Assembly: GCA_964016885.1 (NCBI GenBank)
Contig: OZ024742.1
Location: forward strand, 350,114,001-350,178,000
Source: Eledone cirrhosa
Taxonomy: Eukaryota
Direction: 5' to 3'
DNA: 64,000 nucleotides
The notes under the pieces are model-generated. The model did no database searches. It had not been told where the DNA came from and worked only from the letters and a program-made list of their open reading frames with translations. Positions 10,032 to 63,578 of the stretch are shown here, one piece after another. The translations under genes were made by a program, and so were the position numbers. The first letter of the stretch is position 1; the number at the start of each line of letters is the position of its first letter.

Positions 10032-10067
10032 TTTTACCGGTTGCGCATTTCTAATGCTTTTCAAAAA
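10032..10067 (-). ncRNA. Degenerate minimal hammerhead motif (GAAA mutated to GCAA), same family as 19268
   Basis: Minus strand: ttt TTGAAAA gcatt-aga-aatgc GCAAC cg GTA aaa. Confidence 0.5.
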
Positions 10068-10112
10068 TAATTTTGAGATAGAGCGTCTGTGATGTTTGCT
10101 CTCTCTCTCTCT

Positions 10113-10560
10113 ATATATATATACATATATATATATATATATATATATATATATATATATATATATATATATATATATATATATATATATATATATATGT
10201 ATACATATATATATATATATATATATATATATATATATATATATATATATATATATATGTATATATATATATATATATATATATATATATATATATATAT
10301 ATATATATTATATATATATATATATATATGTATATAAATATATATATATATATGTATGTATATACATATACATATATATATACATATATATATACATATA
10401 TATATATATACATATCTATCTATCTATCTATAATATATATATACATATATATATATATATATATACATACATATACATATATATATATATATATATATAT
10501 ATATATATATATATATATATATATATATATATATATATATATATATATATATATATATAT
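10113..10560. repeat. (TA)n microsatellite (one of many in the window)
   Basis: Seen directly. Confidence 0.97.
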
Positions 10561-11260
10561 TAGAAACACACAGATACATGCGGACACACACATATATACA
10601 TGAATGCATCCGCACCCAACTGTGAGTTAAGGGTGCCAACTTCACCGATGTTGCTCAATGAATGACTGGGACAGACCAATTCAGTTGAACTAGACTGAAC
10701 CAGTATCAGAGTTAAAACTACATTATGAAGAGAGAAGAAACATTTAGATATAATTAGTAATAAAATGTATCATACCTAAACTGCTCCTAAATTCCTCGAC
10801 TACGTAGTTTCGTGGCATAAACAAAAACAATATATCATAAAGACATAGAGTCCTTGCGAGGTCTGCCGACTTATCAAGAGGATACCTCATTTTACTAGTC
10901 TCAAGAACGCGTCTACACGACGTGAGAAAGAATCCCAAAAGGCGGAGGGGGAGATAGTCACGCGATATAACGGTCGAGAAACAGAGCTAAGCCTCTTATA
11001 ACCCCGAAGAAAATACCACGGAGGCGGAGGGGGTATTTATATCGAGGCCGAAGAAGAGGTGGTGAAGAAGGCGAGAAGTATGAGTAATGGAAGCTTTCCA
11101 GCTGTCCCCACACTTCAAAGATTGCTCGACCAGAGGGAGTTATTAACAATATCGAGGCCGCAGAAGAGGTGGTGAAGAAGGCGAGAAGTATGAGTAATGG
11201 AAGCTTTCCAGCTGTCCCCACACTTCAAAGATTGCTCGACCAGAGGGAGTTATTAACAAT
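10561..11260 (-). mobile_element. Non-coding HHR-bearing element (retrozyme or PLE pseudo-LTR), with ~109-bp internal duplication
   Basis: Homologous in inverse orientation to 17886-18414. Flanked by (TA)n. Contains HHR 10793-10882. Confidence 0.8.
10793..10882 (-). ncRNA. Type I hammerhead ribozyme, U3-A8 core, extended stem II
   Basis: Minus strand: tcctc TTGATAA gtcggca...tgccac GAAAC tacgta GTC gagga. Confidence 0.75.
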
Positions 11261-11595
11261 ATATATATATATATATATATATATATATATAGAGAGAGAG
11301 AGAGAGAAAGATATTAAAACAATGAAATTAAACAAAAAACGGTTACTTCATAGTAAAACTCATTATTTTACGATCGTTTCTGGGGGGTAGCACCCCGTAT
11401 GTCCATTCAATTATTGATCTATATAAAATATATTACAAAATATCATAGTAAGAAAAAATACATACGTCTTCTCTACCCGTGTATATATCTGTATATATAT
11501 ATATATATATATATATATATATATATATATATATATATATATATATATATATATATATATATATATATATATATATATATATATATATATATATA

Positions 11596-12127
11596 TGAAA
11601 ATGTATGACCCCGACGGCAGAACTCAAGCCATTTGGACGGCTATTTCTGGACTAAATTAGAATGTTTAGCCTGGTGAATAAATAGCCGAGCTTGTCAAGG
11701 GGGTACTTCCTTATATGGGAAGATTGTAGTTGTCAAGAGGATTGGTTAAAATTTGTTGTAAACAGAAATATGTCTATCATGGCATTTGGTGGGAGGTAGG
11801 GGTGGCTGAACTTGCCTGTAGAACAATAGGAGAGTGAGTGCAGCCGGTCAAGCGTTGAAAGTGATATGTATACAGCAGATTCTAAGGAATTTTAACCAAT
11901 CGTCTTGACAACTACAATCTTCCCATATAAGGAAGTACCCCCTTGACAAGTTCGGCTATTTATTCACCAGGCTAAAAATTCTAATTTAGTCCAAAAATAG
12001 CCGTCGAAACGGCTTGAGCTCTGCCGTCGGGGTCATACATTTTCCTATTTCCCACTCTACTACTCTAAGTATTGAGTACTCTGGTGCGTTATGGTCCATC
12101 TGGTTCCTTACCACAATTCCTTTGTTT
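11596..12127 (+). mobile_element. PLE-type 3'-end fold-back insertion (family A) in (TA)n
   Basis: 11596-11756 is the inverted copy of about 11888-12047, followed by an unpaired ~80-nt tail. Relatives at 13590, 17671, 42598 and 55698. Confidence 0.85.
11939..12032 (+). ncRNA. Type I hammerhead ribozyme, U3-A8 core, full stem III
   Basis: cccc TTGACAA gttcggctatt...aatagccgtc GAA acggc-ttgagctct-gccgt C gggg. Confidence 0.78.
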
Positions 12128-12785
12128 TATATATATATATATATATATATGTAAGTATGTATGTATACGTACATACATATATGTATACAGACGTACAGAA
12201 GCATGCATATATATATATATATATATATATATATATATATATATATATATATATATATATATATATATATATATATATATATATATATATATATATATAT
12301 ATAGATAGATACAGGTACACATACATATATGTACGTATCAGTTTAGCGGACGCTTATTATAACGCCCGCTTTGCTCGTTTGTAAACAAACTGAACAGCCT
12401 GAATTTATGCCGTACGGTGTTAAGGCAACTACGTCACCTTTTTGTTCAACACTGACACAGGAACGATGTACTAGTTTCAAGCTTGTTAGCTATCGTCAGC
12501 ACCTTATACCCTTCTGCCAGATGGTTGAACGTTCGAAAGTACATACTTTCCTTATGAAAATTAACGGCTGAGCAGCCTAATTTGCATATCTGGGACTAGC
12601 TTTTTAAACGGCAGGAGCTCTGTCATCGGGGTTCCGAGTCTCTATTATATAATCCTACTCTACTTCCTCAAGTATTGAGTACTCTGTTGAATAATGGTTT
12701 AACTAGTTTCAAACTGAAGATTATCTCGCGTTCAATCGGGGGTATCCAAAGTAAGTAATGTACTCAATACAAAGCAGAGTATACA

Positions 12786-12925
12786 TATTTAATATAGAAT
12801 ATAGAAAAGCTTCTACAGGGCTAGGACTGTTTCATTCGTGAGAAATCATCAGAACTTCCTGATGATTTCTCAGGAGTGAAACAGTTCTAGTCCTGTAGAA
12901 GTTTTGCTATATTCTGTATTAAATA
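12786..12925 (+). mobile_element. Short fold-back insertion containing an HHR
   Basis: Arms 12786-12852 and 12859-12925 are imperfect inverted copies. Abuts (TA)n. Confidence 0.75.
12851..12905 (+). ncRNA. Type I hammerhead ribozyme, canonical CUGAUGA core, weak stem II
   Basis: aacttc CTGATGA tttctcaggagt GAA acag-ttctagtc-ctgt A gaagtt. Confidence 0.68.
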
Positions 12926-61333: not shown

Positions 61334-61652
61334 TAGAATATAGACCCCAACTATACAAGCGGAGTTGCTGATGTATACCACAATTTCAAACTGCTAGCCT
61401 TGAGTGATACGTTGATGTAAATAATGATCTTACAATCACATGTTATATGCCTTGAAAAGTCCCTCCATGCGGTCGGACGAAACGGCTGTCGGCAATAAAC
61501 TTGTTATAATGTCATAATAGTTCCTTTGTTCTTTTTCACTAATATTTCTGCTCTGCGTATACGCATAGAGCTTAACTAGCTACCGTCACATATTTGGTAG
61601 GTCAGACGTGATCATCGCGATTCACGTACGACCTACCATACATCTTACTTAT
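61334..61652 (+). repeat. 3' pseudo-LTR
   Basis: Near-identical to 55948-56266. Runs into (TA)n. Confidence 0.95.
61448..61494 (+). ncRNA. Minimal type I hammerhead, U3-A8 core
   Basis: Same motif as 56062-56108. Confidence 0.78.
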
Positions 61653-61718
61653 ATATATATATATATATATATATATATATATATATATATATATATATAT
61701 ATATATATATATATATAT

Positions 61719-62026
61719 AGTTATGTAATAAACAACATAAGGCAAGTATTCCATTTACCAGTGGTTTCTTAAAAGCAACAAATTTTGCTTTCAATCATCA
61801 GAATGAAAAAATCCTGGTCTGTTTATTGAATTTGGATTTTTAAAATCCAAATTCAATAAACAGACCAGGATTTTTTCATTCTGATGAGTGAAAGCAAAAT
61901 TTTTTGCTTTTAAGAAACCACTGGTAAATGGAATACTTGCCTTATGTTGTTTATTACATAACTATTAAGCTCTGTTACCTACATAGAGCACTCTTTTTTC
62001 CTGGACTTTTCCGACGGAATTACTTA
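61719..62026 (+). mobile_element. Fold-back micro-insertion with HHR in (TA)n
   Basis: Near-perfect palindrome 61719-61963 centred at about 61841, plus a ~60-nt tail. Confidence 0.85.
61875..61932 (+). ncRNA. Type I hammerhead, canonical core
   Basis: ttcatt CTGATGA gtgaaagcaa..ttgcttttaa GAA acc-act-ggt A aatgga. Confidence 0.75.
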
Positions 62027-62749
62027 TATATATATGTGTGTGTGTGTGTGTGTGTGTGTGTGTGTGTGTGTGTGTGTGTATCTCAAACTGAGATCAGTTT
62101 GACAATCGGCACCGACGAATGAGAGAAAGTTCTCCAGGAAAGTTAACCAAGAATCTTTCAAAATCTAAACCACCGAACTTAACAAAGAACTTACTAGATC
62201 TACAAAACTAAATTGTAAAATTATAATATTATAAAATTATATTAAATTGTTTAGAACTACAAGTGAAGTCATTATTTTACTTTTTTTAAATATACCTAAC
62301 TGTACCAAGGATCTCACACATTTTCCTATATATATATATATATATATATATATATATATATATATATATATATGTATATATATATATATATATATATATA
62401 CTAGCAGTGTATCCCGGCGTTGCACGTATAAGAACATTGGTAATAGCACCTCCAATGTGAAACGTTTATTTGTGGGTGCCTGTTAAAACCTCACGAAAAT
62501 ATAGCGACAGGTATACTTGTTTTATGTGGAGAAAATTAAGAAGTTGAAAGTACAAGCCAGCAAATGGAAATGAAGAAGAAAGTTAGTGAAATCAGTCCCA
62601 GTACGTTACTAGTACTCTATGCCGTAAACAATGGCTGACGTTTTGCCAATGCTATCAATACTTCGCCCTAAAACATCAGTAATAAAGGTTTCTGATTGAG
62701 GCTCAAGGCCAAATATTGTAGGTAGGGGAGGGGTTCATTAAATCGACAT

Positions 62750-62937
62750 TGGTGTATGAAAGGCAAAGCTAACCTCGATGGGATTTAAACGAATAATGTA
62801 AAGAGCCGCCACTCTATGCCGTTAAGGATGAAAGACAAAGCTAACCCCGATGGGATTTAAACGCAGAATGTAAAGAGTCGTCATTCTATGCCGTTAAGCA
62901 AGTCTGACGCTCTACCGATTCTGCTAATGCACCGCCA
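62750..62937 (-). mobile_element. Degenerate SINE fragments (family of 30743) with local duplication
   Basis: gaaaggcaaagctaacctcgatgggatttaaacg occurs twice. tctaccgattctgcta is the A-box region on the minus strand. Confidence 0.6.
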
Positions 62938-63535
62938 TAAAAATACAACAATAGTATTAATAAACTAAAATAATATGGTGATGTCTTCATTCACAGATTT
63001 TGTAGTGATTTGATATATGGGTTGGGATTGATATTAGAGAGATCTGTTTTCAAATCTAATTACATCACAGGTATACAAGTAACAGTGTCACGCTCGCACA
63101 TACACACACACACATACACACTCACACACACGCACACACATATATGTACGATATTAATTTAACAATGAAAATAGTAACAGCAATTCAAGTTATTTTACCT
63201 ATTCATGTTGTTTTACGATCGTTTCGGAGGGTTGATCATATTGACATACAGACTGGTCTATAGCAGTTATATAACTATATACTATCAAACTTCATATATA
63301 GGTTCGGTCAGACCGTCTTCGTAAAAAACAATGATATGAATCGGTATAATAACTTGACTTTTTTTATATCCGACTTTGTATTTAAGGAATTAGCTCAGCG
63401 GAACACAGAACTTTTCTACGGATTTCACTGAATTACTCGCTATCAGATTACATTGAGTTCTATCTACGGTACGGATCCTACCACGAACATTATATCACAT
63501 TGAAAAGTATGAAAAGTATACACTTTTGGTTATAT

Positions 63536-63578
63536 ATGCCCTTGACAAGCCCAACTGGGCGAAACGTACGTAGGTGGT
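63536..63578 (+). ncRNA. Minimal hammerhead motif, U3-A8 core, weak stem I
   Basis: gccc TTGACAA gccc-aact-gggc GAA acgtacgt A ggtgg. Confidence 0.6.

Follow-up and report, generated by a model that had tools for sequence, protein, structure and literature searches.

We analysed a 64,000-nucleotide stretch of Eledone cirrhosa DNA (contig OZ024742.1, positions 350,114,001 to 350,178,000; hereafter the window, in whose own coordinates all positions are given), which carries a dense and diverse population of hammerhead ribozyme motifs. These are probably type I hammerheads of Penelope-like retroelements (PLEs), at least two of them of the Hydra clade, in an octopod-like genome, and the short stubs and retrozyme-like units observed beside them would come from the same TA-targeting system.

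Hammerhead motifs and their families

The window was scanned with a strict type I descriptor (CUGANGA or UUGANAA, stem II, GAAA, stem III, UH and stem I), which is blind to TA tracts. It returned 16 matches, whereas 60 shuffles averaged 0.43 and never exceeded 2 (dinucleotides were shuffled locally, block by block, in the 39.7 kb that remained once arrays and microsatellites had been removed). The dense, diverse population described in the initial annotation, which had named shuffled sequence as a check, was thus well above expectation. A second scan, in which bulges and one core mismatch were tolerated, gave 15 matches versus 0.45 (20 shuffles). When all 16 combinations of core positions N3 and N8 (standard hammerhead numbering) were tried, 10 matches with a score of at least 15 had a C3-G8 core and 6 had a U3-A8 core; the remaining 14, like a reversed-sequence control, yielded none at this score in the window. 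Pooling the strict and the tolerant scan with a third one yielded 19 intact-core motifs in 12 families, with those at 12859, 32489 and 11943 contributed by the extra scans. All 19 exhibited the features of type I hammerheads, namely paired positions 3 and 8, G12 A13 A14, an A15.1-U16.1 pair, H17 and three stems. Beyond these, we observed a family with a U4C change (15950/17498), a small number of mutated copies, and some eight half motifs made up of GAAA, stem III and the cut site only.

Overall, 13 families were distinguished, 11 of them without an open reading frame (ORF). Twelve had been named in the initial annotation, and each carries a recognisable motif; the thirteenth, at 12499-12469 on the minus strand, was added here. 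Clean motifs were found in the families at 10793/18253, 11939, 14123-15238 (four copies), 32738, 36170/42387, 56062/61448 and 61875 (two arms). Motifs with an intact core and one weak stem were those at 19268 (3-bp stem I), 12851 (stem II unstable alone), 32457 (weak stem II) and 63536 (2-bp stem I). Finally, the motifs at 17492 and in its inverted partner at 15950 were non-canonical, reading CCGAUGA (U4C), as was that at 10032, with GCAA instead of GAAA. A U3-A8 core was present in six families and a stem II of 56-78 nt in four. Helix III was palindromic in 8 of the 13 families, a feature described as a dimer signature (Cervera and de la Pena 2014, PMC4209133). The claim that the families are unrelated in sequence held in that no between-family BLAST match had E < 1e-4, save for a relic at 12606, but not for the families at 14123-15238 and 12499, which share stem III and an upstream hairpin.

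The idea that AT-rich, palindromic DNA produced the motifs by chance has next to no probability. In its favour, no hammerhead was matched at the Rfam gathering score in the whole window, and several motifs fold no better than shuffles: folding-energy z values lay between -0.9 and -2.9 in seven motifs, with -0.9 to -1.3 in the two of the PLEs, folding energy being weak evidence by itself. A relaxed Rfam search over 9500-20100 matched all four copies of the 14123-15238 family to Hammerhead_HH9 below the cut-off (29-39 versus 52 bits). Chance is nevertheless refuted by the shuffle and core-combination scans, in which only two paired 3-8 cores were found, and the position and strand of the motifs agree with published PLEs.

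Weak matches at 36513, 36819 and 42027, in low-complexity DNA, were dropped as likely chance, and microRNA matches below the Rfam cut-off were discarded as hairpin and microsatellite noise. A half hammerhead with a palindromic stem III, GAAACGATCGTA, was seen in two related inserts (11369-11380 and 63214-63225, minus strand). The first core being unconvincing, these two half motifs (11380, 63225) were excluded from the counts; the inserts possibly represent a fourteenth, decayed family.

Autonomous elements and ORF-less units

Two families are linked to a substantial ORF. PLE2 (55948-61649, plus strand) is flanked by pseudo-long terminal repeats (pseudo-LTRs) at 55948-56263 and 61334-61649, each of 316 bp, 99% alike and carrying one U3-A8 hammerhead (56066-56104 and 61452-61490, plus strand, from core start to cut site in the 5' copy). 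Its 3' end lies on (TA)n, with the TA junction 160 nt away from the 3' hammerhead, and its ORF is spread over two frames (56301-56903 and 56831-58933). The 3' non-coding region (58933-61334), with small internal repeats, is 2.4 kb long, which is unusual for a Hydra element. PLE1 (36133-42493) is a head-to-head inverted pair, with a longer arm on the minus strand reaching to about 39787 and a 5'-truncated arm on the plus strand (39788-42493). Its ORF is interrupted by stops and frameshifts, and both arms end in a C3-G8 hammerhead (36176-36233, minus strand, 39-nt stem II; 42393-42450, plus strand) and a TA tract.

Both elements carry a sense-oriented hammerhead close to the 3' end, within a terminal repeat, and have (TA)n as their target. 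Reading by motif, we identified a reverse transcriptase (RT) followed by a C-terminal GIY-YIG domain (YRDD/HRDD core; VVY..YVG and LIY..YFG), for which a Pfam search of the PLE1 and PLE2 proteins returned no RT or GIY-YIG match. Both proteins contain SDKT, with DKT in the place of DKG, have RWR and RWT at the RWK position, and carry the linkers CNCRRKDKC and CNCRIKNKC (CxCX5C). Moreover, both lack a CxxC inside the GIY-YIG core and have a C-terminal CxxC-E; the C-terminal signature is complete in PLE2, including N..CxH with the final CxH, and the frame of PLE1 is lost after CxxC-E. Among the protein matches of the main ORF, 2 out of 34 carry a species name, Argonauta hians and Octopus bimaculoides. 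These motifs are the ones given as diagnostic of the Hydra clade (Craig 2021, PMC8557442); placed by them rather than by a tree, PLE1 and PLE2 appear to be Hydra-clade elements. Neptune and Nematis were rejected, since neither protein has the CX2-5CxxC linker with CCHH; Neptune identity was rejected for the ORFs on this linker type and the missing CCHH. Naiad was rejected on its N-terminal endonuclease, which does not apply to PLE1 or PLE2.

Two further families look like non-LTR retrozymes by their sequence organisation. The first is an insert at 13832-15462 built from a 466-nt tandem unit, with 1.9 units on the minus strand and 1.6 on the plus strand, and four hammerheads (14160-14130, 14626-14596, 14735-14765 and 15201-15231). 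On both strands, a whole period from ribozyme to ribozyme is free of ORFs, with no ATG-initiated ORF longer than 50 amino acids. The units differ by private changes only, and the circular fold of the unit reaches -152 kcal/mol, versus -93 kcal/mol for mononucleotide shuffles. Its structure corresponds to the working definition of a non-LTR retrozyme (Li et al. 2026 preprint, 10.64898/2026.07.22.740005), i.e., two or more ORF-less units in succession, every one of them holding a complete type I hammerhead.

The second family has a unit of about 590 nt. Copy A (10561-11258, minus strand) shows the order B-HHR-C-D-A', where HHR is the hammerhead, with a 110-bp internal duplication and a U3-A8 hammerhead with a 59-nt stem II (10877-10798). 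Copy B (17887-18414, plus strand; hammerhead 18258-18337) is circularly permuted, A'-B-HHR-C. The A'-B junction is crossed by 8 and 5 reads. In addition, a contig of 577 nt from another organism (B) fits one unit in the order of copy A, as we read its coordinates. The family thus consists of permuted monomers and junction reads, with no dimer within the window. Alternatively, the permutation of copy B could result from chance insertion of a 3' stub beside it.

In the 466-nt and 12499 families, a hairpin located 50-100 nt upstream of the ribozyme core contains an octamer-like sequence, ATGCAAAT (12580, 14253, 14719 and 15101), which is possibly a promoter element. A fifth site, at 33200, has no ribozyme.

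The other nine ORF-less families are represented in the window by 3' ends only, often as fold-backs, and show none of the structure of retrozymes. The most frequent of them, F3, was found as five insertions. Its longest copy (11597-12127, plus strand) contains a complete U3-A8 hammerhead (11943-12028) with a 56-nt stem II and a 5-bp stem III, as well as a mutated inverted arm (11597-11779). Three fold-back stubs contain half ribozymes only (13592-13779, plus strand; 17673-17861, minus strand, to which the read evidence was mapped; 42600-42792, plus strand), and a fourth (55699-55852, minus strand) has a deletion in the main arm. The stem III loop of the complete hammerhead holds a GAGCUC palindrome, which could permit dimer pairing, the stem being long enough for a monomer. 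A relic with 72% identity to the F3 tail (12606-12698, plus strand) adjoins the C3-G8 hammerhead of the added family (12469-12499, minus strand) on the opposite strand.

Among the remaining stubs, the one at 12789-12922 is a fold-back with a C3-G8 hammerhead (12859-12897, plus strand) and a U.U pair at the base of its weak stem II; both arms begin at the 5' edge of the ribozyme. The insert at 15600-17656 is an inverted pair of low-complexity 3' regions with one U4C hammerhead-like motif per arm (15950-15854, minus strand; about 17498-17594, plus strand). A U3-A8 hammerhead (19300-19271) and its tail lie at 19128-19330 on the minus strand, with related sequences at 10033-10091, in degenerate form, and at 63854-64000, where the end of the window interrupts the copy. 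Single motifs were observed at 32461-32489 (U3-A8, weak stem II, minus strand), 32744-32824 (C3-G8, 62-nt stem II, plus strand) and 63542-63572 (U3-A8, stem I down to 2 contiguous pairs, plus strand), and a fold-back at 61720-62026 contains two complete C3-G8 hammerheads (61801-61756, minus strand; 61881-61926, plus strand).

For these nine families, truncated autonomous copies and non-autonomous RNAs are indistinguishable within the window, and it could be argued that every ORF-less insert is a 3' end, truncated on its 5' side, from one of a dozen families of autonomous PLEs, non-autonomous RNAs being absent. The nine have neither tandem nor permuted structure in the window, read depth drops steeply 5'-ward in both families mapped (F3 and the 590-nt family), and most single motifs have been read as truncated PLEs (Cervera and de la Pena 2014, PMC4209133). 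Such a general truncation is nonetheless improbable, given that the 466-nt unit continues, on either strand, through a full period between successive ribozymes without an ORF, and that the 590-nt family is permuted, with its junction recurring in reads. The proposed model of TA-targeting autonomous PLEs together with non-autonomous ribozyme RNAs was supported. Its assertion that such RNAs are many found support in only 2 of the 11 ORF-less families, the other nine being single or inverted stubs.

Insertion at (TA)n tracts and abundance

The window is AT-rich, with 75 (TA)n tracts of at least 10 nt, between which short inserts and a few retroelements are found. Taking one motif per insertion, the one nearer the 3' end, a (TA)5 or longer tract was present within 300 nt 3' of the cut site in 18 out of 18 insertions, versus 28% of random positions (p ~ 1e-10), a lenient control, because other inserts in the window are likewise TA-flanked. 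For insertions defined by the scanners alone, the tract was present in 11 out of 11 (p ~ 9e-7). Stronger support came from restriction site-associated DNA (RAD) reads and contigs mapped on 17673-18414: past each of the two fixed 3' ends of F3, the overhanging sequence was (TA)n in the two RAD runs and the two contig sets alike, with reads from many loci (17750, 2961 and 2659 reads; 17676, 1020 and 1035 reads).

For all seven families in which another copy reads through, the shorter 3' end coincides with a TA or TAT in the template; two further ends are ambiguous. In F3 (n = 5 insertions), the distance from the cut site to the 3' end is about 100 nt for main arms and about 20 nt for inverted ones. 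Over about 46 nt, 1-3 changes separate the arms of a single insertion and 3-9 those of different insertions, and strand-switch joints were found in reads at several positions within 17798-17810. This likeness within insertions and the several switch points indicate that fold-backs probably form at each insertion, repeatedly. The copy-specific variants shared by the two arms fit twin priming. Moreover, read depth was level across the F3 cut site (about 12,500 versus 12,200 in X7) and fell about 30-45 nt further 5', which argues for templates that were uncut or re-ligated.

Could the short F3 stubs instead be a SINE- or MITE-like family (short interspersed or miniature inverted-repeat transposable elements) now spreading as a palindrome, with the ribozyme a dead relic? 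The fold-back junction is common to two of the five copies, and most mapped reads lose similarity inside stem II, so that most copies appear to be half-ribozyme. We consider this very improbable, because arms match within insertions and not between them, junctions differ among loci, the shared junction lies on short microhomology, and the 3' ends are TA tracts rather than terminal inverted repeats.

A Hydra-type insertion pathway would account for these structures. The element protein would nick (TA)n tracts with its GIY-YIG domain, as suggested by the published bias of the clade, and reverse transcription would be primed internally on the RNA, at a TA or TAT able to pair with the target, 20-300 nt 3' of the ribozyme. 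Since copying would begin just downstream of the ribozyme and usually halt early, most copies would be short 3' stubs with a whole or half hammerhead and no ORF. In fold-backs, both nicked strands would prime on one RNA at two fixed sites and be joined at the point of stalling, frequently within the ribozyme or next to it. The PLE protein may also copy ORF-less tandem or circular RNAs, such as the 466-nt and 590-nt units. The ribozyme itself would most likely trim multimeric transcripts, mostly as a dimer, and inserted copies would derive from uncut or re-ligated RNA.

Besides the motif-based clade placement and the leniency of the TA control, several points weigh against this interpretation. 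At 19271, the nearest TA run is internal and the shared 3' end lies about 143 nt away. More generally, 3' junctions in AT-rich DNA slide. The main arm at 17673 shows three differences both to its own partner and to the 55698 arm, i.e., a tie, and snap-back synthesis or later gene conversion could also give concordant arms. As no ORF is linked to them within the window, the nine stub families could be driven by Naiad or by further kinds of PLE; a preference for (TA)n is also given for Naiad_Obim and Naiad_Ovul (Craig 2021, PMC8557442). Priming by TA microhomology is an extrapolation, because the Poseidon PLE of Anolis, the only PLE tested in vitro, primes at a site lacking homology with the target (PMC11167929). 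Cleavage and expression of the hammerheads in the window are predictions, and in vitro cleavage was reported for only one of nine predicted Xenopus retrozyme dimers.

With regard to abundance, RAD reads totalling about 1.85 Gb covered the F3 tail to a depth of 13,000-14,000 (about 7 per Mb), which suggests 14,000-38,000 copies for an assumed genome of 2-5 Gb. These figures are orders of magnitude at best: the RAD libraries are uneven and probably lose long TA tracts as well as palindromes, and only 0.56 of the PLE2 words are present in the best contig set. Summed contig depths were not taken as copy number. By read depth, the ribozyme of the 590-nt family amounted to 0.2 per Mb. The corresponding densities in the window are 78 per Mb for F3 and 31 per Mb for the 590-nt family, so that the window looks 10-fold to more than 100-fold enriched relative to the genome average. 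An extrapolation of 266 motifs per Mb from the window was rejected, read depth being far lower, and an exact 22-nt F3 pattern had no match in metagenome contigs. The density of the window is therefore no guide to the genome as a whole, with RAD bias as a caveat. For comparison, 126,247 motifs have been counted in the 28 Gb of the axolotl (about 4.5 per Mb); for the giant squid, the source gives only a count of 235 Rfam hammerheads (PMC6962438).

It is conceivable, though doubtful as a whole, that octopods hold 10^4-10^5 or more hammerhead mini-elements in dozens of families, partly filed as "unclassified SINE", that their shape records a Hydra-specific TA-microhomology priming from both strands, with the long stem II as a stop or joining point that makes palindromes, and that some ORF-less units are live circular RNAs. 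In a 2026 annotation of Octopus vulgaris, 893 recently active unclassified SINE families and an 11.6% SINE fraction were reported, and ribozymes are unmentioned in the accessible part of that repeat annotation (PMC13282606). If part of the octopus SINE fraction is hammerhead-derived, repeat annotations would need revision. The remaining interest lies in scale and mechanism: F3 alone may number about 10^4 copies, and short fold-back stubs would be natural snapshots of Penelope-type insertion.

The window also contains three strand-skewed tandem arrays, of a 25-mer (20076-29822), a TTAGGG-rich 31-mer (33361-34385) and a 41-mer (46137-55419), and may be subtelomeric or otherwise repeat-rich. A LINE-like (long interspersed element) copy at 2767-8161 has a long ORF1 and an endonuclease and RT ORF (Pfam PF03372, PF00078), ends at (TATC)n and has a partial copy nearby; a remnant of another RT-encoding retroelement (43843-45760, minus strand, PF00078) is bounded by (TATG)n. 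Finally, a dispersed short repeat family of SINE-like appearance, without hammerhead, was seen at 30743-30894, 34933-35023 and 62756-62935.

Comparison with known systems

The initial annotation had regarded the population as a candidate undescribed system, which does not hold. The Hydra clade has been published as hammerhead-bearing and (TA)n-inserting, with hammerheads readily detected and almost all families inserting into (TA)n, and the host group is already listed there through Hydra-1_Obim from Octopus bimaculoides, a (TA)n-associated family with a hammerhead, in the supplement (Craig 2021, PMC8557442). The U3-A8 core, heterogeneous families and opposite-strand pairs had likewise been described (Cervera and de la Pena 2014, PMC4209133). 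What is new are the 3' ends on TA or TAT, the copy-specific fold-back variants and the local abundance; the kind of system is already known. A literature search, which did not cover most subscription papers or Repbase, returned neither cephalopod retrozymes nor TA-microhomology twin priming in PLEs. The tandem and inverted structures of PLEs and their microsatellite bias have been named as unexplained (Craig 2021, PMC8557442).

Poseidon was reported to start at two internal sites, to extend both strands and to insert without a need for cleavage (Frangieh 2024, PMC11167929). The window resembles it in the two fixed internal starts downstream of the ribozyme, the extendability of both target strands and the copies of uncleaved RNA, and differs in its TA/TAT ends, the start of Poseidon being without target homology.

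Metazoan PLE hammerheads number thousands of heterogeneous motifs per genome, including a U3-A8 variant with about 1,300 copies in Schistosoma; they are mostly single truncated motifs, with opposite-strand pairs 100-700 bp apart (Cervera and de la Pena 2014, PMC4209133). Heterogeneous families, U3-A8 cores, palindromic helix III, mostly solitary truncated copies and opposite-strand pairs were likewise found here. However, helix III in the window has 3-5 pairs and is not minimal, stem II reaches 56-78 nt in the four families mentioned above, and no cephalopod is named in the accessible part of that work.

Animal non-LTR retrozymes are known from mussels, and 16 hammerhead families were described in a coral (Cervera and de la Pena 2020, PMC7229834). 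Like them, the 466-nt family consists of units in tandem that lack an ORF and bear a single type I hammerhead apiece, has a GC content below 50% and predicted strong self-pairing as circles, and coexists with PLEs (PMC7229834; 10.64898/2026.07.22.740005). The units of 466 and about 590 nt are longer than the 150-450 nt first reported (PMC7229834) but within the 51-972 nt of the preprint (10.64898/2026.07.22.740005). Moreover, the inserts of both families in the window are short, inverted or permuted in (TA)n rather than long arrays, and their circular RNAs are predicted.

Among Hydra-clade PLEs (PMC8557442), the hammerhead listed for Hydra-1_oBim is unlike those of the window, the hammerheads in the accessible part of the table are all C3-G8, versus U3-A8 in PLE2, and most families are shorter than 3 kb, versus 5.7 kb for PLE2 with its long 3' region. 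In contrast, the C-terminal GIY-YIG domain, DKT, the CxCX5C linker, the missing CCHH, the sense-strand hammerhead near the 3' end, the (TA)n target and the inverted 5'-truncated partner are all shared with the elements of the window.

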